Below, one piece after another: positions 4,211 through 30,905 of a stretch of DNA of 30,965 nt. The stretch is from the UHGV virus genome UHGV-0305615. One strand, given 5' to 3'. The first letter of the stretch is position 1. Every line of letters begins with the position of its first letter. The position numbers and the translations under genes were made by a program. The notes beneath the pieces are model-generated. The model saw nothing but the letters and a program-made list of their open reading frames with translations. It did no database searches and was not told the origin of the DNA. The DNA comes from a virus.

Positions 4211-4506
4211 GCCGCGTCCCTCTGCCCATCAATCTGATCAGCCAGATCCCAGCGGGCGATAATTGCCATTGCCTCGCGCCGGTAGGCATCCATCAGTTCT
4301 TCGAACTCAGGGCTGCCTTTAGCAGCCTCCAGCACTTCCTGACGAACGCCTTTGCCTGTTACAACGTCGAAAGTTGAGGACAGTTGATGAAGTCGGATGC
4401 TCTCAATCAGTTCAACTTGTCGGTCATATAGCTGTTCTGACAGGCGGTAGTCCTTGTCGAATGCCAGCATGATTTTTTGAAGATTTTTCTGCTGATTAAC
4501 GTTCAT
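4207..4506 (-). CDS. Hypothetical early protein (99 aa)
   Basis: Track ORF 4207..4521 trimmed to ATG 4506 (MNVNQQ...) with GGGAGGG RBS; stop overlaps exonuclease start. Confidence 0.55.
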   Translation of the reverse strand: MNVNQQKNLQKIMLAFDKDYRLSEQLYDRQVELIESIRLHQLSSTFDVVTGKGVRQEVLEAAKGSPEFEELMDAYRREAMAIIARWDLADQIDGQRDAA

Positions 4507-4508
4507 TA

Positions 4509-4661
4509 TCAGCCCTCCCATATCTCGTTATCGTTGGCTACATCGCGAGCTTCTTTGCTGACGAAAGCCCACTTAATGCCTTCCTGTAAGGTGCGGAACT
4601 TCCAGCTCATGAATCCGCATGCAGTAACGCAGTACCAACCGTTGATGATTTTCCACTGCAT
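4509..4661 (-). CDS. Hypothetical small protein (50 aa), first gene of leftward early operon
   Basis: Not in ORF track (below size cut-off). ATG 4661..4659 preceded by GAGGT; translation MQWKIINGWYCVTACGFMSWKFRTLQEGIKWAFVSKEARDVANDNEIWEG; stop 3 nt before next gene's start. Confidence 0.4.
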   Translation of the reverse strand: MQWKIINGWYCVTACGFMSWKFRTLQEGIKWAFVSKEARDVANDNEIWEG

Positions 4662-4680
4662 AACTTGTTACCTCGGTCGG

Positions 4681-4695
4681 TTACCGTTGAGGTAA
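4681..4695. promoter_or_regulatory. Predicted operator (dyad TTACCGTTGAGGTAA), leftward early promoter region
   Basis: Exact TTACC-N5-GGTAA dyad just downstream of a leftward TTGACA -35 (rc of 4718-4723). Confidence 0.5.
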
Positions 4696-4742
4696 TGATT
4701 ATGCGTATCTGGTTTGATGTCAATAGATATGAGTTAAAAAAA

Positions 4743-4757
4743 TTACCCATAAGGTAA
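4743..4757. promoter_or_regulatory. Predicted operator (dyad TTACCCATAAGGTAA)
   Basis: Exact TTACC-N5-GGTAA dyad between repressor-gene terminator and leftward promoter. Confidence 0.5.
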
Positions 4758-4769
4758 TCTTGTTGGTAA

Positions 4770-4792
4770 TAAAAAAGCCGCCATAAGGCGGC
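4770..4792 (-). terminator. Rho-independent terminator downstream of repressor gene
   Basis: GCCGCC-ATAA-GGCGGC hairpin (4777-4792) followed on the minus strand by a T6 run (A-run 4771-4776 on plus). Confidence 0.7.
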
Positions 4793-4814
4793 TTACTTAC
4801 TGAAAAATATGATT

Positions 4815-5399
4815 TTATTGTTTGTTTTTTTCGTTCTGGTTGATGACAAATTCAATGTAACTTTCGATCTTTGCCTTCTCTGTTTCAGGTAACAATGCGT
4901 AGCGCGAGCGGTCATAGTTGATAGTTGCAGGGTCATGCGGATGAATCAGTAGTTCATATCCGTGACGCCCGAATGCAGATGCAACATTCTCCAGGGTGGA
5001 AATGGAAACGCTGACTTCATTGTTTAACAGGCGGCTTATTGTCACCTGGGCGACGCCGGATGCGCGGTGAAGTTTTCCCTGAGTTGAAAGGTCGCGGCTT
5101 TCACTCATCCAGCGTTCCAGGTTGTGAGCTGCCAGCTGACCAATGTCGCTTGGGCCGACAGGCTGAAAACCTTCCTGAGAAAGCGAGCGATCGATATCAA
5201 GCCAGTTACGGGGTTTATTGGCGGCAGCTTCAATTTTTCGCGCAACCTGGTCGCCGATAACCTTCTTGCCAAGAGCCCAGCGGTTTACCAGATTTGCCTG
5301 AGTTCCAAGTTTTTCTGCCATCCGCGTCTGAACACCATTGAATTCACGGTCGATCAAGTCGTTGAGATTTTGCCTGCGGACGTCCTGGATACTTTTCAT
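4815..5399 (-). CDS. Prophage repressor, CI-like, two HTH domains, no peptidase S24 (autocleavage) domain
   Basis: 194 aa; two XRE-like HTH stretches (MAEKLGTQANLVNRWALGKK... and ASGVAQVTISRLLNNEVSVSISTLENVAS...); divergent from Cro-like gene; dyad operators on both sides. Confidence 0.7.
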   Translation of the reverse strand: MKSIQDVRRQNLNDLIDREFNGVQTRMAEKLGTQANLVNRWALGKKVIGDQVARKIEAAANKPRNWLDIDRSLSQEGFQPVGPSDIGQLAAHNLERWMSESRDLSTQGKLHRASGVAQVTISRLLNNEVSVSISTLENVASAFGRHGYELLIHPHDPATINYDRSRYALLPETEKAKIESYIEFVINQNEKNKQ

Positions 5400-5454
5400 T
5401 TTCTGGAAAATCGCCTCATATATGAATCAGTAGATGATTCAATTTAAAGCAATA

Positions 5455-5469
5455 TTACCCAACAGGTAA
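5455..5469. promoter_or_regulatory. Predicted operator (dyad TTACCCAACAGGTAA) in repressor/cro intergenic region
   Basis: Exact TTACC-N5-GGTAA dyad. Confidence 0.55.
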
Positions 5470-5502
5470 ATGCACCTCATAGGTAACTATCCTTGATTTT
5501 TG

Positions 5503-5517
5503 TTACCTTATGGGTGA
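5503..5517. promoter_or_regulatory. Predicted operator (TTACCTTATGGGTGA) overlapping rightward promoter
   Basis: One mismatch in right half; lies within the spacer of a TTGATT -35 / AT-rich -10 upstream of the Cro-like gene. Confidence 0.45.
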
Positions 5518-5553
5518 ATATTTATTATCTGAAATAAATATCAGGCAATAGCT

Positions 5554-5784
5554 ATGAGCGATAACGGACATTTCGATTTCAAAAAGCACTGGCTTGCACT
5601 TACTCCGGATGAGCGTGAAGCCTTCGCACAGGAAGCCGGAACGACGAGTCACTATATCCAGACTCACTTAACAGGTAAGCGCAAAATGCCAGGTAAAGTA
5701 TTGATGAATGGGCTTTTTAAAGCCTGTAAAACAAGACAATGGCTGCGCTCAAAAGCAGAACTGGCATACTTCTTCTACTCATGA
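5554..5784 (+). CDS. Cro-like HTH regulator
   Basis: 76 aa; divergent from repressor; HTH-like EAFAQEAGTTSHYIQTHLTGKRK; assignment mostly positional. Confidence 0.55.
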   Translation: MSDNGHFDFKKHWLALTPDEREAFAQEAGTTSHYIQTHLTGKRKMPGKVLMNGLFKACKTRQWLRSKAELAYFFYS

Positions 5785-5805
5785 TATCCAGCTACAACCC
5801 TCTGT

Positions 5806-5829
5806 AGACCGCCACCCGGCGGTCTTTTC
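5806..5829 (+). terminator. Rho-independent terminator after cro-like gene (tR1-like position)
   Basis: AGACCGCC-ACCC-GGCGGTCT hairpin followed by TTTT. Confidence 0.65.
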
Positions 5830-5934
5830 ATATCTATTCGTACCTCAAAGGTAATAAAAAACCAAATCTGGTTGATCTTTTTTTTGTGTCAGCACAAAAT
5901 GACCGTAATCCCAATACTAATAACAGGGCTTACC

Positions 5935-6135
5935 ATGGAAATCATTACACGTATTGATGCCGCAAAGCGCGGACTTAAACGCTACTACACCGGAAAAACA
6001 TGTAAGCACGGACATGACAGTGAACGCTGGGTTTACAACGGACACTGTGTTGAGTGCACCATGGAATCAAACCGTCGTATCAGGGCAGAGATTAAGCAGA
6101 TCATGATTAATTCCTCCCCACAACATTCAAGCTGA
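5935..6135 (+). CDS. Hypothetical small zinc-ribbon protein (66 aa)
   Basis: Track ORF 5872..6135; ATG 5935 chosen (alternative ATG 5899); CKHGH...CVEC cysteine/histidine cluster. Confidence 0.4.
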   Translation: MEIITRIDAAKRGLKRYYTGKTCKHGHDSERWVYNGHCVECTMESNRRIRAEIKQIMINSSPQHSS

Positions 6136-6150
6136 TAGCGGAGATTAATC

Positions 6151-6942
6151 ATGAGCAGACATGCAACAGATTGGGCCTGGGAGACAGATCCAGGTAGCTC
6201 GTCATTAAAGCTCATACTGCTCTCGATGGCTGACAGAGCCGATGAATATAACCTCTGCTACCCCAGCATAGAACGCCTCGTTAAAGACACTTGCCTGAAT
6301 AAAAAAACCGTGCAGGCCGGGCTTATATCGCTCATGAAAATGGGGCTTATTTCAGATACCGGAGAGAGAAAGGGAGCGACGAAAAGAGTGCGGGTTTTCT
6401 CTCTTAATATAACCAAAAACGGGAACATTAAAGGCAACCGGGAAGGGGGTAATGAACCCGAAAACGGTAATGTTACCGAAAACGGGAATATACCCAAAAA
6501 CGGGATGTTGAATGATCCCAAAAACGGGATCCAGAACCAGTCATATAACCAGTCATTTAACCAAGAGAGGGAGAGCAGGACAAAAACCGGGAATTCTGTG
6601 CCTCATGACCCCGGCGCAAACAACGCCGTGATGAATAACTTTGTTCCTCCTGGTGGGCCAGGGCAATTAGGCAAATTTGTCATGCATGAACAATGGCAAC
6701 CATCAGATGACTTTCTTCGGAAAAGCTCATTGCAGGGAATCTACCTGGACAGTCTGCCAACGGCACAGGAACTTGCAGAGTTCAGAATTTACTGGATGGC
6801 TGAGGGTAAGGCATACCATCAGGCACAGTGGGAGCAGAAGCTGGCAAGGCGGCTGCAGATTAGCAGACAGAAGCAACCAACATTACCTGATAACAACGTT
6901 CCGCACTGGAACAGCCCTGAAGCGTGGGAGGATTTCTTGTGA
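6151..6942 (+). CDS. Replication initiator, lambda-O-like (HTH N-terminus, internal iterons)
   Basis: 263 aa; GGAG RBS; N-terminal HTH-like LILLSMADRADEYNLCYPSIERLVKDTCLNKKTVQAGL; internal DNA iterons produce an Asn/Gly/Lys-rich low-complexity linker; immediately upstream of P-like gene. Confidence 0.65.
   Translation: MSRHATDWAWETDPGSSSLKLILLSMADRADEYNLCYPSIERLVKDTCLNKKTVQAGLISLMKMGLISDTGERKGATKRVRVFSLNITKNGNIKGNREGGNEPENGNVTENGNIPKNGMLNDPKNGIQNQSYNQSFNQERESRTKTGNSVPHDPGANNAVMNNFVPPGGPGQLGKFVMHEQWQPSDDFLRKSSLQGIYLDSLPTAQELAEFRIYWMAEGKAYHQAQWEQKLARRLQISRQKQPTLPDNNVPHWNSPEAWEDFL
6413..6530 (+). repeat. Iteron array (five direct repeats, core CCmAAAACGGkAA) inside the O-like gene; candidate replication origin
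   Basis: Repeats starting at 6413, 6457, 6476, 6493 and 6517. Confidence 0.55.
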
Positions 6943-7724
6943 ACAACGTTTTTACCGCGATACAAAACCGTGACGGAGAAGCCCTTTCTCGCATGTCAGG
7001 TTATCAGCATCAATACGTCAACAATGACAATGTGGTGAACATGTCAGCAGAGAGGCTTGTTGATGCCCTTTTCAAACAGCTGAAACAACTGTTTCCGGCG
7101 GCAGTGGTAACCAACCTGAAGACGCCAGAGCAGGAAGTCGCTGCAAAACAGCAGTGGATTGCTGCGTTTGCCGAAGGTGGGATCCGAACCCGTGAACAGG
7201 TTTCTGCTGGTATGCGCCACGCCCGTGCCAGTGAGTCTCCGTTCTGGCCGTCGCCAGGGCAATTCATCAAGTGGTGTAAAGACAGCAAGATGGTTCTTGG
7301 CGTCACCATTGACGATGTGATGGCGGAGTTTCACCGGTACAGCAAGGAAAAAAGTTTATATCCTGGTGGTCCCGAAAGATTCCCGTGGCGACATCCGGTT
7401 ATGTACTGGGTCGTATGTGATACCCGCCGTGCAATGTATCAGCGCCAGCTTAGCGAGATTGAGGTTGAGAAACACGCGCGCAGGCTGCTCGATGATTGGG
7501 CGAAAAAGGTAGCTTCCGGACAGCAGATACCCGATCCGGTGATCAGCATACAGGCAAAGCGAGAGCCCATGAGTACACCTCCGGACACAGGGAGAGACGT
7601 TTACCATCCACCAGGGCGAAGTTTCGGGTGCATGCCTAACGCCGCCACCCTTGGGGGAATAACACCGGCGCAGTGGCTGATGGAGGAAAACAGGCGGGGA
7701 AAGGCGGCAGGATTTATCAAGTAA
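6939..7724 (+). CDS. Replication protein P-like (helicase loader)
   Basis: Clear similarity to remembered lambda P (SPFWPSPGQFIKWC vs lambda PFLPSPGQFVAWC; NGITTMEQVNAGMR-like block). GTG start 6939 overlapping O-like stop (GTGA) with GGGAGGA RBS; track lists 6924 GTG. Confidence 0.85.
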   Translation: MNNVFTAIQNRDGEALSRMSGYQHQYVNNDNVVNMSAERLVDALFKQLKQLFPAAVVTNLKTPEQEVAAKQQWIAAFAEGGIRTREQVSAGMRHARASESPFWPSPGQFIKWCKDSKMVLGVTIDDVMAEFHRYSKEKSLYPGGPERFPWRHPVMYWVVCDTRRAMYQRQLSEIEVEKHARRLLDDWAKKVASGQQIPDPVISIQAKREPMSTPPDTGRDVYHPPGRSFGCMPNAATLGGITPAQWLMEENRRGKAAGFIK

Positions 7725-7761
7725 TACCAGCGCGATAGCGCATTTTTTTACGTCTTGATAA

Positions 7762-7776
7762 TTACCTGTTGGGTAA
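7762..7776. promoter_or_regulatory. Predicted operator (dyad TTACCTGTTGGGTAA) filling a promoter spacer
   Basis: Exact dyad lying between TTGATA (7755-7760) and TAAAAT (7777-7782). Confidence 0.55.
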
Positions 7777-7823
7777 TAAAATATTCTAAAATCTATTGAT
7801 TTCGTGTATTATGTGGTTTTTAA

Positions 7824-7838
7824 TTACCTTAGGGGTAA
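7824..7838. promoter_or_regulatory. Predicted operator (dyad TTACCTTAGGGGTAA) 4 nt upstream of ATG 7842
   Basis: Exact dyad. Confidence 0.5.
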
Positions 7839-7841
7839 ATC

Positions 7842-8186
7842 ATGAGAAAACAGATACAGGCTCTTGGTCGACTCAAAACAGGCCAGATGAACAAAACAGA
7901 ATCTGCGTATTGCCAGCACCTTGAGCTGCGTAAACGTGCAGGGGAAATCGCCTGGTATCGATTCGAGGGTATCAAGCTGCGGTTAGCTGATAACACGTTC
8001 TATACGCCAGATTTCGCTGTGATGCTCGCCACCGGAGAGATGGAACTGCACGAAGTGAAAGGTTTCTGGACCGACGACGCCAGGGTGAAAACCAAAGTAG
8101 CCGCAGATCAGTATCCGTTCCGAATCATCGGGGTAACGGTTAAACCAAAGAAAGCAGGTGGCGGCTGGAACATCGAAGAGTTCTGA
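7842..8186 (+). CDS. Hypothetical phage protein (114 aa)
   Basis: Complete ORF; first gene after the third operator-bearing promoter; no confidently recognised domain. Confidence 0.6.
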   Translation: MRKQIQALGRLKTGQMNKTESAYCQHLELRKRAGEIAWYRFEGIKLRLADNTFYTPDFAVMLATGEMELHEVKGFWTDDARVKTKVAADQYPFRIIGVTVKPKKAGGGWNIEEF

Positions 8187-8247
8187 ATCGACGATCTTTT
8201 TAGTTATCAATGTAATCAATAAGTTATGTGGATAAGCGAGGGTAAAG

Positions 8248-8754
8248 ATGAAACCGAGCTACGAAGAACTTGAAGAGCAACTGAACAGATCGCGGCGTCT
8301 ATGTGATGCCGCGCTGGCCAATGAGCGGTCTTGGGAAACAGCCATGATGCAGGCATGCGGTGAAGACGGTCCGAAGTCAGTAGCTGATAAGTTTGCGGAA
8401 CTTGAAGCCAGATGCGCGGCGCTGGCGGCGGAGAATACGGAGCTGAAGTCTGTGCACCCTCAACCATTCGGAGCTGAGATGATGAAGGCTCTTGATGCGT
8501 ATGAGAAGCATCAGGATGAAGTGCCAGAGACAGGAATGCTCAATGCATTTTTCATCTTGCGCGACAGCATCCGTGTTGAAACGCCAGCCACCGATGCTTT
8601 CCTGGCTGAAGTCCGGGCGCAGGGATTGGAGATGTTTGCACAGAAATGTAACTCAAAATCCGAACAGTCGCTTGCATCTGATATACGCGATAACTGGAAA
8701 CTACTCGGTGAGCATGCGACTGACTTTGCCGCAGAGCTTCGCAAAGGAGAGTGA
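8248..8754 (+). CDS. Hypothetical phage protein (168 aa), coiled-coil-like N-terminus
   Basis: ATG with GAGGG RBS; acidic, Ala/Glu-rich. Confidence 0.6.
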   Translation: MKPSYEELEEQLNRSRRLCDAALANERSWETAMMQACGEDGPKSVADKFAELEARCAALAAENTELKSVHPQPFGAEMMKALDAYEKHQDEVPETGMLNAFFILRDSIRVETPATDAFLAEVRAQGLEMFAQKCNSKSEQSLASDIRDNWKLLGEHATDFAAELRKGE

Positions 8755-8755
8755 T

Positions 8756-9574
8756 ATGACCACTATTACCAGAGAAAGCTCGAAGATTAAATCATTCATC
8801 AATGGCTTCCTGAGCGACCCGGCGCACGGTAATCAATCTTTAGACAGTCTGCTTGCTGATGTGTTTCGTATCGCACTGGCATCGTTGGAAGCAGAGCCTG
8901 TTCTGTATCAGTCCTGCACTCGCCCCACCTGGAATAGCGGTGTTCCGTGGACGGAATGGAAAGAACGAAGTCGTGAGTGCTACGAAGACGATTTGCGCTT
9001 TACAGACACGCCTGACCATGCCGGTTGGATATACAAATGTCGAAAACTATATACCACTCCGCCAGCGCCGATAGCGTTAGAGGCCATTGAAAACGCAATT
9101 GAATACATCCGCAGTATCGCTTTTCACATCGATGAAGACGATTACCACGGCAAACATATTGCGTATTTCATGCAGCAAGCATTGGCCTGGCTGGAAGGGC
9201 ATTCATGCAGCGACGACAGACTGGGTAAAGCCGAGAATCAACCAGTACGCGGCAACCAGGCTGCCGAATCCAATCGCGGTAATGAGTGGACTGGCAATCC
9301 TGATATTGATAACGCCATCATCATGCTCGACCGCATAGATACGGCGGAAAGTTACGATGATGACCGTATTGAGGCTGTTAAGGTTGTTTTGCGTAGACTG
9401 GCTGGCAACTCTCCGGTAACTCCGGATGGTTGGGTTATGGTCCCTAAACAGGTAACGCCGGAAATCAGCAACGCGATAAACGTTGTGGGTCAACGCTGTA
9501 CATGTGGGAATTGCTCTCAGCGGTTGTGGGATTTATTACTCGACGCCACACAGCAAGGGGTTAACCGTGGCTAA
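8756..9574 (+). CDS. Hypothetical phage protein (272 aa) with C-terminal CxCGNC motif
   Basis: Internal ATG 8756 of track ORF 8492..9574, preceded by AAAGGAGAG and abutting the previous stop. Confidence 0.6.
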   Translation: MTTITRESSKIKSFINGFLSDPAHGNQSLDSLLADVFRIALASLEAEPVLYQSCTRPTWNSGVPWTEWKERSRECYEDDLRFTDTPDHAGWIYKCRKLYTTPPAPIALEAIENAIEYIRSIAFHIDEDDYHGKHIAYFMQQALAWLEGHSCSDDRLGKAENQPVRGNQAAESNRGNEWTGNPDIDNAIIMLDRIDTAESYDDDRIEAVKVVLRRLAGNSPVTPDGWVMVPKQVTPEISNAINVVGQRCTCGNCSQRLWDLLLDATQQGVNRG

Positions 9575-9848
9575 CCTGCAACTTGCCGTCAAAGGTGAAT
9601 ACTTCGATGCCATGATTCGCGGAGAGAAAACGGAAGAGTATCGCCTGTGTAATGACTACTGGAATAAGCGAATTATGTTCCGGGAGTATGACCGCCTGAT
9701 TATCACAAAGGGATATCCGAAGCGTGACGATTCCAGCCGCAGAATTGACGTTCCGTATGGCGGCTATGAAATCAAGACAATCACACATCCGCACTTCGGC
9801 GATAAACCGGTAAAGGTGTACGCGATAAAGGTGAATATTGATGGCTAA
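9567..9848 (+). CDS. Hypothetical protein (93 aa), possible ASCH/PUA-like fold
   Basis: GTG 9567 with AAGGGG RBS, overlapping previous stop; fold guess from LAVKGEYFDAMIRGEKTEEYR pattern only. Confidence 0.45.
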   Translation: MANLQLAVKGEYFDAMIRGEKTEEYRLCNDYWNKRIMFREYDRLIITKGYPKRDDSSRRIDVPYGGYEIKTITHPHFGDKPVKVYAIKVNIDG

Positions 9849-10179
9849 ATCAGCAGCAGAGCGCAAAGCCGCTCAGAGAGCCAGACAAGCTGCATCCGGT
9901 GTACGTAAGCTGGAGATTGTGCTGGATGCTCAGGAAATTGAAATGCTGGAGCGTAGCTGTGCCACGCGTCGCCCCGGGCGTGCGCCTTACGAATTTGGTG
10001 AGTATATAGCGTTACTGATCCGCCAGGATGATGCACGCGTGCACGGGCGTATAAAATCGATCAGCAGAAAACGTTGCGGTAAGTGCGGCGAGAGAGTTCC
10101 TGTGAATTCATGCCCGTGTAATGGTGACTCGCAATGCTGGGTGACTAAAGGCTGGCATGAAACGAAATTAATAGTGTGA
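9841..10179 (+). CDS. Hypothetical protein (112 aa): basic N-terminus plus C-terminal zinc ribbon
   Basis: ATG 9841 with AAAGGTGAA RBS; CGKCGERVPVNSCPCNG; stop codon lies inside the 12-bp palindrome. Confidence 0.55.
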   Translation: MAKSAAERKAAQRARQAASGVRKLEIVLDAQEIEMLERSCATRRPGRAPYEFGEYIALLIRQDDARVHGRIKSISRKRCGKCGERVPVNSCPCNGDSQCWVTKGWHETKLIV

Positions 10180-10187
10180 CATGTCAC
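10176..10187. repeat. Perfect 12-bp palindrome GTGACATGTCAC (copy 1 of 3)
   Basis: Exact sequence; identical copies at 12627-12638 and 29977-29988. Confidence 0.6.
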
Positions 10188-10196
10188 GAAGGTGTT

Positions 10197-10409
10197 ATGC
10201 CAAAAATACGCTACGACCTTGAAGATATGAGAGATAACTCAGCAAATTTTCCGAAAGAGGTTAAATTTCTCATGCATAAGTATGGTTGCGCTAGGAGGGA
10301 TATAGTTATCGACAGTCAGCACCCTTGCGGCGAGGATGTAATTTTCATTCGCGGTAAATGGGAAGGGTATCTTGACGAGAGTTTTTACGATGAATTTGAT
10401 GGACTTTGA
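10197..10409 (+). CDS. Hypothetical small protein (70 aa)
   Basis: ATG 10197 within track ORF 10176..10409; GAAGG upstream with short spacing. Confidence 0.4.
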   Translation: MPKIRYDLEDMRDNSANFPKEVKFLMHKYGCARRDIVIDSQHPCGEDVIFIRGKWEGYLDESFYDEFDGL

Positions 10410-10414
10410 ATACT

Positions 10415-10440
10415 GCCGCCAACTATGGCGGCTTTATTTT
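10415..10440 (+). terminator. Rho-independent terminator separating early genes from packaging genes
   Basis: GCCGCC-AACTAT-GGCGGC followed by TTTATTTT. Confidence 0.65.
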
Positions 10441-10451
10441 GCATGGTACTA

Positions 10452-10466
10452 TTACCAAAACGGTAA
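10452..10466. promoter_or_regulatory. Predicted operator (dyad TTACCAAAACGGTAA) upstream of TerS
   Basis: Exact dyad between terminator and TerS start; extra TTACC half-site at 10469-10473. Confidence 0.5.
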
Positions 10467-10483
10467 CTATTACCACGGTGGTT

Positions 10484-11080
10484 ATGATGCCTGCTGAACC
10501 TAAAACCTATAAACGCAAATCAACGCAATTTAAGCCACTAACAGCAATGCAGGAGGCTTATTGCCAGTCATACATCAAAACGCCTGAAAACCAGACTCAG
10601 GCAGCGATTAACGCAGGATTCTCCCCAAATACAGCGGCAGTTAAAGCCAGTGTCATGATGCGCGATGAACGCATTCAAAAACGGATTGCCGAGTTGATGG
10701 AGGAGCGCAACAAACGAATGCGCGTCAGTGCTGATTACGTTCTCATGCGCCTGGTGGAGATCGACCAGATGGACGTGATCGACATCCTCAACGACGATGG
10801 GAGCCTTAAGCCAATCCGCGAGTGGCCGAAAATCTGGCGCACTACGCTTAGTGGCTTTGATCTGTCATCGACCATCATGAACATGAACGAGGATTCGATA
10901 GAGACAATCCTCAAAAAAATTAAATGGCCTGACAAGGTGAAGAACCTCGAACTGATTGGTAAGCACGTCGACGTCAACGCATTCAAAGAACGCCTGGATG
11001 TTAATGTGAATGTGACAATTGCTGATCGCATAGCGGCAGCCAGGAAGAGACTGAAAGAACGTCAGGATGGCAATCAGTGA
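10484..11080 (+). CDS. Terminase small subunit
   Basis: Track ORF 10406..11080 trimmed to ATG 10484 because the 5' part contains the terminator and operator; family guess from sequence character and position before TerL. Confidence 0.65.
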   Translation: MMPAEPKTYKRKSTQFKPLTAMQEAYCQSYIKTPENQTQAAINAGFSPNTAAVKASVMMRDERIQKRIAELMEERNKRMRVSADYVLMRLVEIDQMDVIDILNDDGSLKPIREWPKIWRTTLSGFDLSSTIMNMNEDSIETILKKIKWPDKVKNLELIGKHVDVNAFKERLDVNVNVTIADRIAAARKRLKERQDGNQ

Positions 11081-12552
11081 CAGATACAGCGTTATCTCCT
11101 GAAGAGCAGTTAATCGAGGATATTGCAGGGTTCACTCACGATCCGCTTGGCTATGCCCTCTATGCGTTCCCGTGGGGGGAACAGGGGACTGAACTGGCAC
11201 ATGCCACCGGCCCACGTCAGTGGCAGGCTGATGCGTTCCGAGAGATACGTGATCACCTGCAGAATCCAGAGACGCGCTATCAGCCGCTTATGCTGGCACG
11301 CGCTTCTGGTCACGGTATTGGTAAATCCGCATTCATCTCAATGCTGATCAACTGGGGCATGTCCACTTGCGAGGATTGTAAGGTCGTGGTGACCGCCAAC
11401 ACCGACAACCAGCTACGAACGAAGACCTGGCCGGAAATTATCAAGTGGTCGAACCTTGCTATCACGAAAGACTGGTTTACCTGTACCGCTACCGCGATGT
11501 ACAGCAATGATCCTGGGCACGACAAGCGGTGGCGAGCTGACGCAATCCCCTGGTCTGAGCACAACACTGAGGCATTCGCCGGACTACACAACGAGCGCAA
11601 ACGCATCATCGTGGTATTCGATGAAGCGTCGAACATTGCGGATCTGGTGTGGGAAGTTGCTGAGGGTGCGCTTACGGACGAAGACACTGAGATTATCTGG
11701 GTGGCGTTCGGAAACCCTACACGTAACACCGGGCGTTTCCGCGAATGTTTCCGCAAATATAAACACCGCTGGAAAACTGCGCAGATTGACAGCCGGACGG
11801 TGGAAGGCACTAACAAACAGCAGTTGCAGAAATGGGTCGATGACTACGGGGAAGACAGCGACTTCGTTAAAATCCGTGTGCGCGGCATATTCCCTGATGC
11901 ATCTGAATTGCAGTTTATCCCTACCGGTCTTACTGATGAGGCAATGAAACGGGTGGTAACCGCTGCGCAGGTGGCGCATGCTCCGGTGATAATCGGTGTT
12001 GACCCTGCATATTCAGGCGTTGATGACGCGGTGATATACCTGCGGCAGGGGCTACACAGTAAGGTGCTGTGGACTGGCAACAAGACTACCGACGATCTGA
12101 TTATGGCGAAGCGTATCGCTGACTTTGAAGACCAGTATCAGGCTGACGCGGTGTTCATCGACTTCGGTTACGGTACCGGTCTGAAGTCAATCGGTGATGG
12201 TTGGGGGCGCACATGGCAACTTGTTCCGTTCGGTGGCGCGTCTACTGACCCGCAGATGCTCAACAAGCGTGGGGAGATGTTCAACTCATGCAAGACATGG
12301 CTGAGGCTGGGCGGGATGCTGGATGACCAGGAAACAGCGGACGACCTGTCGGCGGCAGAGTATAAAGTTCGAGTGGACGGTAAAATCGTTATCGAACCGA
12401 AGGAAGATATCAAGGAGCGGCTTGGGCGTTCTCCTGGTAAAGGCGATGCGCTACTGCTGACGTTTGCTTTCCCTGTGTCAAAGCGTCTGCGAATTCCCGG
12501 GCAGCAGAACCAGCAAGGCAAGGCCATCACAGATTACGATCCCTATGCTTAA
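11077..12552 (+). CDS. Terminase large subunit
   Basis: 491 aa; Walker-A-like ARASGHGIGKS; GTG start overlapping TerS stop with AGGATGG RBS. Confidence 0.9.
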   Translation: MTDTALSPEEQLIEDIAGFTHDPLGYALYAFPWGEQGTELAHATGPRQWQADAFREIRDHLQNPETRYQPLMLARASGHGIGKSAFISMLINWGMSTCEDCKVVVTANTDNQLRTKTWPEIIKWSNLAITKDWFTCTATAMYSNDPGHDKRWRADAIPWSEHNTEAFAGLHNERKRIIVVFDEASNIADLVWEVAEGALTDEDTEIIWVAFGNPTRNTGRFRECFRKYKHRWKTAQIDSRTVEGTNKQQLQKWVDDYGEDSDFVKIRVRGIFPDASELQFIPTGLTDEAMKRVVTAAQVAHAPVIIGVDPAYSGVDDAVIYLRQGLHSKVLWTGNKTTDDLIMAKRIADFEDQYQADAVFIDFGYGTGLKSIGDGWGRTWQLVPFGGASTDPQMLNKRGEMFNSCKTWLRLGGMLDDQETADDLSAAEYKVRVDGKIVIEPKEDIKERLGRSPGKGDALLLTFAFPVSKRLRIPGQQNQQGKAITDYDPYA

Positions 12553-12596
12553 TCCGCTAGTGGGGATAATGTCGTTGATATCCTCTGATGAGGATA

Positions 12597-12626
12597 AAAC
12601 AAAGCCAGCTCATCGGCTGGCTGTTT
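12597..12626. terminator. Bidirectional rho-independent terminator between convergent TerL and minus-strand ORF
   Basis: GCCAGC-TCATCG-GCTGGC hairpin (12604-12621) flanked by an A-run upstream and TGTTT downstream. Confidence 0.5.
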
Positions 12627-12638
12627 GTGACATGTCAC
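12627..12638. repeat. Perfect 12-bp palindrome GTGACATGTCAC (copy 2 of 3)
   Basis: Exact sequence. Confidence 0.6.
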
Positions 12639-12642
12639 GGTG

Positions 12643-13017
12643 TTACTTAATGGCATCAAATCCAGCGTTGATGGCTTCCGCAATATTGATGGCGCTTGTT
12701 TTATCGAAGTGCCCATTCTGAATAAGCGCCGCATGCAGGCATTGTAACTTCATGTTGTATAAGTGTTCGCTCATGTAATCATTATCACGTTTTTCCATTT
12801 CAGAATGTTGTGCTGTTATCCAGTCATGGAACGTAACGCTAGTACCATGGTCTTCGCTAAGAGTTAACCCGGCCAGTCCCTCACTCTGAATTACTTCGTA
12901 ATGCATTTCATTACCAGCAAAAACGCCATAAAAAACGCAGTCTTCAGCCTGAACGATACGAGAATATTTTAATGGCCATTCATTTAGATACTTAGCCAAC
13001 ATATCAATTGTTTTCAT
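12643..13017 (-). CDS. Hypothetical protein (124 aa), minus-strand insert between TerL and portal
   Basis: Complete ORF with AAGGTGAG RBS; lower GC than flanks; no recognised domain. Confidence 0.55.
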   Translation of the reverse strand: MKTIDMLAKYLNEWPLKYSRIVQAEDCVFYGVFAGNEMHYEVIQSEGLAGLTLSEDHGTSVTFHDWITAQHSEMEKRDNDYMSEHLYNMKLQCLHAALIQNGHFDKTSAINIAEAINAGFDAIK

Positions 13018-13028
13018 GATCTCACCTT

Positions 13029-13052
13029 AAAAAAATGCCCGGCGACCCGGGC
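13029..13052 (-). terminator. Rho-independent terminator on minus strand between tRNA and the 124-aa ORF
   Basis: GCCCGG-CGAC-CCGGGC hairpin followed on the minus strand by a T-run (A-run 13029-13035 on plus). Confidence 0.5.
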
Positions 13053-13215
13053 GAACTGGAAGCAATGAGTTATGCCTTCCGTGGCTGTACTGGTTTACAG
13101 CATGAAGTCATCGCAATGGCGTCCTGCTGTAAAAAGGGCGGTGATAGTTCTTCAAGGGAAACCATCACCGCCAAGCACCTGGAACTTCTGGCATCACGGT
13201 CCTTAGGCGTGATTC

Positions 13216-13292
13216 TGGCGTGGCATGCAGGATTCGAACCTGCGACCAACCGCTTAGAAGGCGGTTGCTCTGTCCGACTGAGCTAATGCCAC
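13216..13292 (-). tRNA. tRNA-Arg (anticodon UCU)
   Basis: 77-nt minus-strand sequence GTGGCATTAGCTCAGTCGGACAGAGCAACCGCCTTCTAAGCGGTTGGTCGCAGGTTCGAATCCTGCATGCCACGCCA folds as a cloverleaf: 7-bp acceptor stem, GCTC/GAGC D-stem, ACCGC/GCGGT anticodon stem with loop CTTCTAA, GCAGG/CCTGC T-stem with TTCGAAT loop, encoded CCA. Confidence 0.9.
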
Positions 13293-13614
13293 AACGCTGA
13301 GAGCACTTAGCCTGTTAAGGCACCACACTTTGTCGCGGCTCCATAAATGCTCTCATCGTTGTACCCTCGTCTCTTCCGAGGCGTCACACCGAATCGCCGG
13401 GATGGTGAATCCCCGTGCGCGGAATAAAACCGCTCGACTTGCACATTCCGGCTACCTGGTTCGTTTGCCCGAGCAAGGGAGGGTGCCCCTTAAACGTATC
13501 CAGACCGCTATCGTCGCATGTGCCATACGCCGTACTGCTCAAAATAAAAGCTCACTCCACCTGTTCAATTTAACGACAAGCCAGTCAGGTTAGTAACCGG
13601 AATGAACTTTTTGG

Positions 13615-13629
13615 TTACCTGAAAGGTAA
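13615..13629. promoter_or_regulatory. Predicted operator (dyad TTACCTGAAAGGTAA) between tRNA leader and virion genes
   Basis: Exact dyad; a leftward TTGACA -35 (rc of 13646-13651) lies 17 bp away. Confidence 0.5.
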
Positions 13630-13719
13630 TAATTCGTGCGTTAAATGTCAACAGTCTACGATAAATAAATCATATGTGGTTAAATTGGTAATAATTTAAT
13701 TGCGTACGGAGTCATTGAT

Positions 13720-13926
13720 ATGTGCATGGGTAGCTCACCATCAGTGCCTGCAACACCAGAAGTTCAGGCAGCACCACAGGAGCAGGATGCCGCCGTTGTT
13801 GATGCCCGCGACGAAGAAACTCGTCGCCGTCGCGCTGCTGCTGGTCGTAGTTCTACGCTGCTTACCGGTTCTCAGGGCGACACATCAACCGCTAATACCA
13901 GCGGTAAAACGCTACTTGGTCAGTAA
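13720..13926 (+). CDS. Small hypothetical virion-module protein (68 aa), possibly T7 gp6.7-like
   Basis: GGAG RBS; begins MC..., Pro/Ala/acidic then basic; sits just upstream of portal. Homology is a recollection, not verified. Confidence 0.4.
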   Translation: MCMGSSPSVPATPEVQAAPQEQDAAVVDARDEETRRRRAAAGRSSTLLTGSQGDTSTANTSGKTLLGQ

Positions 13927-13940
13927 CCGGAGTCATTGAA

Positions 13941-15620
13941 ATGGCGGAAACAACTAAAGAGCGATTGAACAAACAGTTCGCACAACTTGAAAGCGAGCGT
14001 CAGTCGTTCGAGCCGCACTGGCGCGAGTTGAGTGATTACATCAACCCGCGTGGTTCCCGCTTTCTGACTTCTGAGGTCAACCGTAACGATCGACGCAATA
14101 CACGCATTATTGATTCGACCGGGACTATGGCGGCGCGCACTCTCGCCAGCGGCATGATGTCAGGCATCACAAGCCCCGCGCGTCCGTGGTTTCGCCTGGC
14201 TACGCCAGATCCTGAAATGATGGATTATGGCCCTGTTAAGTTGTGGCTTGAGGCGGTGCAGAACCGCATGAACGATATGTTCAATAAGTCGAATCTCTAT
14301 CAGTCGCTGCCGCAGTTATACGGAAGCCTCGGCACATACAGCACTGGTGCAATGGCAGTGCTGGAGGATGACGAGGACATCATTCGCACAATGCCATTCC
14401 CGATAGGCAGTTACTACCTGGCTAACTCACCTCGTGGCAGTGTGGACACCTGTTTTCGCAAGTTCTCTATGACTGTTCGTCAGCTTGTTCAGGAGTTCGG
14501 GCTAAATAACGTCAGCGAATCCGTAAAAAGCATGTGGGAAAGCGGCACCTACGAGAAGTGGGTTGAAGTGATGCATTCGGTTTACCCGAACATTGACCGC
14601 GATACATCGAAGCTGGATAGCAAGAACAAGCCATTCAAATCGGTTTATTACGAGGTTGGTGGCGATAACGACAAGTTGTTGCGTGAGTCCGGATTCGATG
14701 AGTTTCCAATTATGGCTCCGCGCTGGGAAGTTAACGGCGAAGATGTTTATGGATCATCATGCCCGGGTATGCTGGCGCTTGGACCTGTTAAGGCATTGCA
14801 GCTTCTCCAGAAGCGCAAGTCGCAGTTGATTGATAAAGCCACCAATCCGCCGATGATTGCTCCGACTTCCCTCAAGAATCAGCGTGCCTCCCTTCTTCCT
14901 GGCGACATCACGTATATCGATCAGATTACTGGTCAGGATAGTTTCAGGCCTGCTTATCTGGTTAACCCCAGTACAGCAGATTTGGTGGCAGACATTCAGG
15001 ACACTCGTCAAATCATTAACAGCGCCTACTTTGTCGATCTGTTCATGATGTTGCAGAACATCAATACCCGCTCGATGCCTGTTGAAGCGGTGATCGAAAT
15101 GAAAGAAGAAAAACTTCTGATGTTGGGGCCGGTTCTGGAGCGTCTGAACGACGAATGTCTTAATCCTCTCATTGACCGCGCTTTCTCGATGATGGTGCGT
15201 AAAAACATGCTGCCGCCACCACCTGACGCGATGGAAGGTATGCCCCTGAAGGTCGAATACATTTCCGTCATGGCTCAGGCGCAGAAGTCTATCGGCCTGT
15301 CCAGTCTGGCATCCACGGTCAACTTCATTGGTCAACTTGCGCAAGCGAAACCAGAAGCTCTCGACAAACTCAACGTTGATCAGGCGATCGATGCATTCGC
15401 TGATATGTCCGGAGTGTCTCCAACCGTCATTGTTCCGCAGGAACAGGTTGAGCAGGCTCGCCAGCAACGGGCACAGCAACAACAGCAGCAACAAATGATG
15501 GCGATGGGGATGGCGGCGGCACAGGGTGCCAAGACGCTAAGCGAAGCTAAAACTTCGGATCCGAGTGTTTTGTCAGCTATGGCGAATGCATTTAGTGGTC
15601 AGGGTGGGCAATCACAATGA
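13941..15620 (+). CDS. Portal protein, T7 gp8-like
   Basis: 559 aa; GGAG RBS; Gln-rich C-terminus (QQRAQQQQQQQMMAMGMAAAQ) and overall layout resemble the remembered T7 connector. Confidence 0.8.
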   Translation: MAETTKERLNKQFAQLESERQSFEPHWRELSDYINPRGSRFLTSEVNRNDRRNTRIIDSTGTMAARTLASGMMSGITSPARPWFRLATPDPEMMDYGPVKLWLEAVQNRMNDMFNKSNLYQSLPQLYGSLGTYSTGAMAVLEDDEDIIRTMPFPIGSYYLANSPRGSVDTCFRKFSMTVRQLVQEFGLNNVSESVKSMWESGTYEKWVEVMHSVYPNIDRDTSKLDSKNKPFKSVYYEVGGDNDKLLRESGFDEFPIMAPRWEVNGEDVYGSSCPGMLALGPVKALQLLQKRKSQLIDKATNPPMIAPTSLKNQRASLLPGDITYIDQITGQDSFRPAYLVNPSTADLVADIQDTRQIINSAYFVDLFMMLQNINTRSMPVEAVIEMKEEKLLMLGPVLERLNDECLNPLIDRAFSMMVRKNMLPPPPDAMEGMPLKVEYISVMAQAQKSIGLSSLASTVNFIGQLAQAKPEALDKLNVDQAIDAFADMSGVSPTVIVPQEQVEQARQQRAQQQQQQQMMAMGMAAAQGAKTLSEAKTSDPSVLSAMANAFSGQGGQSQ

Positions 15621-30270: not shown

Positions 30271-30603
30271 TCAGTTATTTACTTTCTTTGGCACTATTGC
30301 TGATAATGAGATCATAAAGCCAGTTAGAGCAGCAATAATTAATGGGAATATGAAAGCATCTGAAGTTCTCAGTGGATTCTTCATATCGAACAGAATAACA
30401 ATGAAGAATGCGCTGGTTGCAAAAGTAGATGATGAATAAACCTCATTCATCTTGTATTGCAACTTATCCAAAGAAAAAGGAGGCGTATCTTTGCAAACGG
30501 CATCCCATATCAGATGAACAGCAAGATAAGCAATGCACAGTATGAAATAAAACCTTGTCAATTGCTGTGCATCTCTGGGCGCAAGCCAAGATAAATCAGG
30601 CAT
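30271..30603 (-). CDS. Hypothetical membrane protein (110 aa, about three predicted TM segments)
   Basis: Hydrophobic stretches FYFILCIAYLAVHLIW, FATSAFFIVILF, AFIFPLIIAALTGFMISLSAIV; start 1 nt after upstream gene's stop. Confidence 0.6.
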   Translation of the reverse strand: MPDLSWLAPRDAQQLTRFYFILCIAYLAVHLIWDAVCKDTPPFSLDKLQYKMNEVYSSSTFATSAFFIVILFDMKNPLRTSDAFIFPLIIAALTGFMISLSAIVPKKVNN

Positions 30604-30604
30604 T

Positions 30605-30793
30605 TTAGTTGGCTAACTTCTTTGCGGCATAGATAGCAGGGAGTGCAACAGCACCAGCCACAGCAAATGCATAGGCTATCCCAGCTGTAACAGTAAAAGC
30701 AGGAAGCAGGAAAGATAATCCGCCTGGTAGGGCAAAGCCTAAGCCCGCTCCGCCAATAATGGCCTTCAGCAATGTAATGATGTTGATTTCCAT
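30605..30793 (-). CDS. Hypothetical small membrane protein (62 aa, Gly/Ala-rich, two hydrophobic segments)
   Basis: GAGGGGG RBS; MEINIITLLKAIIGGAGLGFALPGG... with charged C-terminus KKLAN. Confidence 0.55.
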   Translation of the reverse strand: MEINIITLLKAIIGGAGLGFALPGGLSFLLPAFTVTAGIAYAFAVAGAVALPAIYAAKKLAN

Positions 30794-30819
30794 GTTTCCC
30801 CCTCATGTAAACTCTCGGT

Positions 30820-30834
30820 TTACCTTTGGGGTAA
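30820..30834. promoter_or_regulatory. Predicted operator (dyad TTACCTTTGGGGTAA) abutting the -10 of the membrane-operon promoter
   Basis: Exact dyad; minus-strand promoter TTGCAG (rc of 30857-30862), 17-bp spacer, TACTAT (rc of 30834-30839). Confidence 0.5.
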
Positions 30835-30905
30835 TAGTACTCTATTCACCCCCAGTCTGCAATCTGTACAGAATTATTTAAAGGCACGTCCCTGTGCCGC
30901 CGCCG

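Follow-up and report, generated by a model that had tools for sequence, protein, structure and literature searches.

The intergenic region at 7725-7841 of the analysed stretch of DNA (the window, 30,965 nt) is read here as a secondary early promoter module operated by the prophage repressor Rep, a paralogue of the leftward OL/PL module that would drive the early genes 7842-10409. Judged from the sequence, a probability of about 0.68 is given to this reading. The weak terminator behind the P-like gene would end most of the transcription arriving from the cro-side promoter. Behind it, two Rep operators (7762-7776 and 7824-7838) would bracket a promoter, PX2, with the proximal operator, OX2, covering its -10 end and its start. 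In the lysogen, one Rep tetramer, with its two pairs of DNA-binding domains, would sit on both dyads and occlude PX2, and the 47-bp segment bearing the -35 would probably be bent or looped. Once Rep is inactivated, PX2 would drive 7842-10409, including a candidate regulator gene located just before the late operon. In the prophage of the window, a rare allele of the flank may add a second promoter of good quality further upstream (TTGATA-16-TAAAAT), which the same complex would repress. For 7725-7841, we infer that Rep binds, that the promoter is active, that the DNA is looped and that the terminator leaks.

The region as such is nothing unusual in this phage group and already annotated in epsilon15. 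As far as seen, two aspects go beyond the public record: a fixed 62-bp two-operator module common to PL and to the 7725-7841 region (PX), and the hypervariability of the spacer of the distal operator and of its outer flank.

Operator family of the prophage

The window is a prophage of the phiV10/epsilon15 type (Uetakevirus), with an identity of 96-98% to phiV10 and its relatives. The region is contained in 530 of 5426 complete Escherichia coli genomes; prophages of this type are common in the species. The gene upstream of the region is P-like, as the first-pass annotation of this DNA had it, and the block downstream opens with a DUF1064 gene (Table 1). Near the end of this block, a homologue of the epsilon15 gp49 'transcriptional regulator' lies directly ahead of the late operon. 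Elsewhere, a tRNA-Arg gene (anticodon TCT; ARAGORN, Rfam 73 bits) is found on the minus strand at 13216-13292, between the terminase and portal genes, and an Rfam match to sRNA-Xcc1 (64.8 bits, gathering score 53) on the minus strand at 632-721, near the left end of the window.

The first-pass annotation had proposed two exact dyads in the region, and both are read in the sequence as TTACC-N5-GGTAA: TTACCTGTTGGGTAA at 7762-7776 and TTACCTTAGGGGTAA at 7824-7838. The first is indeed bracketed by TTGATA and TAAAAT, filling the 16-bp spacer between them, and the second lies just ahead of ATG 7842, with only the bases atc (7839-7841) intervening. Dyad 1 extends to a perfect ATTACC/GGTAAT palindrome. 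Both dyads have the ATTACC-N5-GGTAAT form of the epsilon15/SPC32H-type Rep operator, at 7761-7777 and 7823-7839, and the gene of a cognate repressor is present in the same element. The two operators, OX1 and OX2, are 62 bp apart from centre to centre, about six helical turns, which leaves a gap of 47 nt.

Eight exact copies of TTACC-N5-GGTAA are present in the window against 0.03 expected, and 11 copies with at most one mismatch against 0.47 expected. They are placed next to the repressor gene and where transcription units start, and the dyads at 7762 and 7824 belong to the same family as those flanking rep. The region 7725-7841 is one among at least six or seven operator-bearing regions. Its earlier description as the 'third' operator-controlled promoter was an undercount, since dyads also occur at 5840, 10452 (with 10470), 13615 and 30820. 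Terminators stand ahead of operator-bearing regions at 5806, 7730 and 10415. Another conserved motif, TATGTGGTT (7810 and 13673), is not enriched, with 9 matches against 6.5 expected.

Some of the other copies have a layout of their own. After the cro terminator, 5840-5916 holds a partly degenerate third copy of the module: GTACC-N5-GGTAA is followed by TTGATC (5873-5878)-17-CAAAAT and then by TGACC, which replaces the proximal TTACC, so that the copy is shifted by one base and half-degenerate. A separate promoter for the replication genes is possible there, judging by these motifs. At the head of the late operon, an extended -10-like TGG-TACTAT (10443-10452) shares its final T with the start of dyad 10452, and the one-mismatch dyad 10470, 18 bp further downstream, abuts the start of the terminase small subunit. 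The layout of 10443-10484 suggests that the late operon may be under direct Rep control. On the minus strand at 30820-30880, TTGCAG-17-TACTAT ends on the dyad 30834..30820 in the register of PL and points leftward to small minus-strand open reading frames (30271-30806).

In the epsilon15 record (NC_004775.2), seven such 17-bp ATTACC-N5-GGTAAT palindromes carry the feature 'protein_bind: repressor'. One of them, at 35906-35922, separates the replication gene from the early gene that follows it and is the positional homologue of OX1. The upstream terminator, the distal dyad, CTATTGA and a second dyad (35968) 62 bp downstream are all shared with the window. At this place, only the distal dyad is annotated and no promoter is given; the sites in the record are predictions. 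The record also marks sites ahead of terS, ahead of the portal region and close to the tail-fibre gene. Both dyads recur in the same layout in Enterobacter phage Tyrion, whose identity is about 78%. In epsilon15 and Tyrion, the module is followed by the gene of a RuvC-type resolvase, and in the window by DUF1064, so the module is kept ahead of different first genes. The half-site TTACC/GGTAA is used by every relative that was recovered, including epsilon15 and Tyrion with their diverged repressors or genes. The phiV10 record annotates a putative rho-independent terminator at the equivalent of 7730-7749 and no other feature there.

Table 1. Features of the window discussed in the text (positions in the 30,965-nt sequence)
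Feature	Position	Strand	Content or basis
Dyads left of rep	4681, 4743		
OL/PL module, paralogue of the 7725-7841 module	4681-4757	-	Two dyads 62 bp apart, internal TTGACA-17-AATCAT
Rep, prophage repressor presumed to bind the dyads	4815-5399	-	Match to SPC32H repressor, PDB 5D50
Dyads between rep and cro-like gene	5455, (5473), 5503		
Cro-like protein	5554-5784		PHROG 'transcriptional repressor', E 5.6e-13
Dyad after cro terminator	5840		
P-like gene, stop TAA	7722-7724	+	PF06992, E 1.5e-56
Weak intrinsic terminator after P-like gene	7730-7749	+	GCGC-GATA-GCGC stem-loop, then A and T7
Outer flank of distal dyad	7751-7761	+	Holds TTGATA
PX1 -35 (earlier proposed)	7755-7760	+	TTGATA; sigma-70 consensus scan
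Distal operator OX1	7761-7777 (core 7762-7776)	none	ATTACCTGTTGGGTAAT; 0 mismatches to ATTACC-N5-GGTAAT
PX1 -10 (earlier proposed)	7777-7782	+	TAAAAT, spacer 16 bp; sigma-70 consensus scan
Dyads after P-like gene	7762, 7824		
PX2 -35-like hexamer	7796-7801	+	TTGATT, within invariant CTATTGA 7793-7799
PX2 -10-like hexamer	7819-7824	+	TTTAAT, final T is first T of proximal dyad
Proximal operator OX2	7823-7839 (core 7824-7838)	none	ATTACCTTAGGGGTAAA; 1 mismatch to ATTACC-N5-GGTAAT
Early gene block, presumed controlled	7842-10409	+	Opens with DUF1064, closed by terminator 10415-10432
DUF1064 gene	7842-8186	+	Pfam; first gene of the block
Homologue of epsilon15 gp49	9841-10179	+	PHROG 536, E 6.5e-54; 77% identity to gp49
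Dyads after strong terminator, adjoining terminase start	10452, 10470 (one mismatch)		
Dyad between terminase and portal genes	13615		
Dyad near right end of window	30820		

Conservation and promoter hexamers

Both dyads are conserved in related prophages. Two sets of relatives were collected by other means than the dyads: 66 unique upstream sequences were fetched via the DUF1064 protein, and 118 sequences were anchored on the terminator and CTATTGA. The arms of dyad 1 are invariant in both sets (66/66 and 118/118), and the arms of dyad 2 are kept in 115 of the 118 anchored sequences. Nucleotide diversity was calculated for 58 relatives with a full colinear match from the P-like gene to DUF1064. 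It amounts to 0.000-0.003 in the dyad arms, 0.000 in the terminator 7730-7749, 0.006 in the internal -35 (7796-7801) and 0.007 in the internal -10 (7819-7823), and to 0.04-0.055 at the third codon positions of the flanking genes. The spacer of dyad 2 reaches 0.229, the flank on the outer side of the distal dyad 0.249 (24 haplotypes in 59 sequences) and the spacer of dyad 1 (7767-7771) 0.455. The half-sites are under purifying selection and the spacer is free, the pattern looked for in a Rep operator. The spacer of the distal operator, for which 59 sequences have 27 different pentamers, exceeds the diversity of third codon positions about tenfold.

The distal operator of OL behaves likewise: its N5 spacer (4748-4752) and the flank of about 10 nt on its outer side (4760-4767) are hypervariable, and its arms are invariant. 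In both 62-bp modules, the diversity of the distal spacer and flank lies between 0.25 and 0.46 among close relatives. This rapid change could reflect selection tuning the strength of promoter or operator, or a hot spot of mutation at this place. As a source of the spacer diversity, short-patch conversion among the operators of one genome was considered and is not supported (9 same-genome spacer matches, 7.5 in permutations, P 0.2).

That 7842-10409 forms a repressed transcription unit of its own is plausible on account of the shared dyad family, the invariant arms, the epsilon15 annotation and the flanking terminators. The first-pass annotation, which gave these genes their own directly repressed promoter, was in this respect right in kind; its count of promoters and its choice of hexamers did not hold. 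It had taken TTGATA as the -35, with dyad 1 in the promoter spacer (PX1). If PX1 is the functional promoter, dyad 2 would be only an auxiliary site or a roadblock in the leader. With 10 of 12 consensus positions, PX1 ties with the leftward promoter PL for the top score in 4400-14000, its spacer falls within the 16-18 bp of sigma-70 promoters and its leader would have a normal length (~53 nt). The dyad in the spacer also resembles the rightward candidate TTGTTA-17-TATTAT around dyad 5503. However, the -35 falls in a hypervariable patch and the hexamers are not conserved. Among 63 relatives selected by pattern, the -35 occurs in 29 variants with a mean of 3.1 matches out of 6, and TTGATA itself in four; T7756 is present in only 9 and G7757 in 31 of the 66 unique relatives. 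The corresponding sequence in phiV10 is TCAATA-16-CAAAAT, and the -35 is absent altogether from the flank in epsilon15 and Tyrion. Furthermore, the patch is like the hypervariable flank outside the distal OL dyad, a site where no promoter is expected. The -10 is fairly well kept (TAAAAT in 40/63, CAAAAT in 13/63), and TAAAAT is also part of an A/T-rich tract directly upstream of the PX2 -35. PX1 as the main promoter is possible in the strain of the window, without conservation; overall, it is a doubtful candidate that still deserves consideration.

The preferred candidate promoter, PX2 (TTGATT-17-TTTAAT), lies between the dyads, in the exact register of PL. Viral contigs were scanned for two dyads 40-54 nt apart. 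A gap of 47 nt was found in 133 of the 167 pairs, and the matches fall into two classes, the leftward OL/PL and PX. TTGAnn is located at index 19 of the 47-nt gap in 62/63 sequences of PX and 57/57 of PL with this gap, and CTATTGA is invariant at the same gap index in both classes. The distance from the -35 to the proximal TTACC is 22 nt in 62/63 PX and 79/79 PL sequences. With this fixed distance, the last base of a -10 hexamer placed 17 bp downstream coincides with the first T of the proximal dyad. The same geometry is seen for TTTAAT in PX2, AATCAT in PL, TACTAT at 10447-10452 and TACTAT by 30834 on the minus strand. The -10 of PX2 matches the consensus in 5/6 positions, with T rather than the critical A at position 2. 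The promoter would give a leader of ~10 nt, and OX2 covers both its predicted start (~7831) and the Shine-Dalgarno sequence AGGGG (7831-7835). At position 7808, the window has A and 65 of the 66 relatives have C, which gives the window a TATTAT hexamer of its own (7807-7812) between the dyads.

Terminator, read-through and other ligands

The terminator 7730-7749 has a GC-rich stem-loop followed by a U-run, the features of an intrinsic terminator, and folds with -7.4 kcal/mol (z -3.4). It was missed by a simple terminator scan with a threshold of 5 pairs because its stem has only 4 pairs, followed by U7. The terminators at 5806-5825, after cro, and at 10415-10432 reach about -15 kcal/mol (-15.8 for the latter).

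With a terminator this weak, read-through could suffice for 7842-10409. These genes would then have no promoter and be read from the cro-side promoter, and Rep on the dyads would be a roadblock reinforcing termination in the lysogen. The imperfect hexamers of PX1 and PX2 are in agreement with this explanation. Nevertheless, TTGAnn is invariant in the exact register of the PL -35, a -10 whose last base is the opening T of TTACC is also seen at PL, at 10452 and next to 30834, and read-through is already limited by the strong terminator right after cro. Transcription of the block by read-through alone is hence considered unlikely.

The dyads might also be bound by another phage regulator instead of Rep. 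The Cro-like protein is one candidate; its PHROG match is a 'transcriptional repressor', and the operators of a repressor are usually also used by Cro. Against a regulator other than Rep, dyads stand to the left and right of rep, an arrangement of classical immunity regions, phages with the same half-site have a conserved N-terminal domain of Rep, and the public annotation of epsilon15 assigns the sites to the repressor. Exclusive binding by such a regulator seems improbable, and the main explanation leaves room for operators used by both Rep and Cro. Translational control by RNA hairpins of the dyads, in which dyad 2 would sequester the ribosome-binding site of the first gene, is very improbable: dyad 2 does overlap the Shine-Dalgarno sequence and end 3 nt before ATG, as the one-mismatch dyad 10470 likewise adjoins the terminase start codon, but its fold (-4.2 kcal/mol, z -0.37) is no better than that of shuffled sequences, the arms are simply invariant without covariation, and the same dyad stands beside divergent promoters, where either strand would be transcribed, and in untranscribed positions.

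Rep and comparison with other repressor systems

Rep of the window aligns over its full length with the repressor of phage SPC32H (E 4e-42, residues 1-190). It has two helix-turn-helix regions, and the N-terminal DNA-binding domain is particularly well conserved. SPC32H Rep is described as binding palindromic DNA as a tetramer, with weak binding of the dimer (PMC9638917). Its domains are given as an N-terminal DNA-binding, a middle dimerization and a C-terminal tetramerization domain, with ~100 Å between the two dimerization-domain pairs of the tetramer (PMC9986798). The same 2023 paper calls the mechanism by which Rep proteins of this type engage DNA poorly characterised. The analogous protein Rco of plasmid pLS20, a tetrameric helix-turn-helix repressor that shares the tetramerization fold of SPC32H Rep, loops DNA between two operator regions 75 bp apart around a promoter (PMC9986798). 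Tetramers of the LacI/GalR type likewise act on two operator regions a short distance apart. Rco differs in that it binds direct-repeat arrays; looping by Rep is what we infer at the 62-bp pairs, and the loop at 7762-7838 would be tight.

A wider proposal can be made tentatively. A fixed two-operator module, consisting of the distal dyad, 19 nt, the -35, 17 nt and a -10 overlapping the proximal dyad, may be clamped by one Rep tetramer into a micro-loop and may have spread by copying to a minimum of two and probably to three early promoters (PL, post-cro and PX), with the uncontacted distal spacer and flank outpacing third codon positions. Literature text on the operator sequence or on Uetakevirus repressor sites was searched and nothing relevant was found; operators are not defined in the ZX5 paper.

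In SPC32H, Rep is part of the Rep/Ant lysis-lysogeny switch (PDB 5D50 and 5D4Z; Kim et al. 2016, as cited in later papers), of which the window has the full-length Rep homologue. An Ant homologue was looked for in the window and none was identified. A LexA-box-like sequence, CTGTACTGGTTTACAG, is located at 13085-13100, upstream of a minus-strand gene (12643-13017; PHROG 4846, unknown function) coding for 124 amino acids. By analogy with SPC32H, it could flag an SOS-controlled antirepressor. The 124-aa protein has no detectable sequence relation to solved structures, including the chains of the Rep-Ant complex 5D50.

Several parallels exist with other phages. As in lambda-type OL/OR, palindromic operators overlap the early promoters on either side of the repressor gene. 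The lambda genes beyond P depend on N antitermination and read-through, and no operator is known beyond P. In the window, on the contrary, operators stand at most transcription-unit heads, including that of the late operon. Moreover, lambda has adjacent operator triplets, whereas the operators of the window are often pairs 62 bp apart. One repressor with many binding sites spread over the genome is also described for mycobacteriophages L5/L1 (PMC1934351). The stoperators of these phages are asymmetric, biased in orientation and act within transcription units; the sites of the window are perfect palindromes in intergenic promoter regions, and an assignment as mycobacteriophage-type stoperators was rejected.

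For phages of the phiV10/epsilon15 type, these results would mean that the prophage is kept silent by the same repressor site guarding most transcription-unit heads, including the block behind the replication genes, and not by one switch plus antitermination. The operator features of the epsilon15 record could be added to those of phiV10-type phages as well. The geometry of the paired dyads, finally, offers a concrete and testable model of how a tetrameric SPC32H-type Rep may be arranged on DNA.
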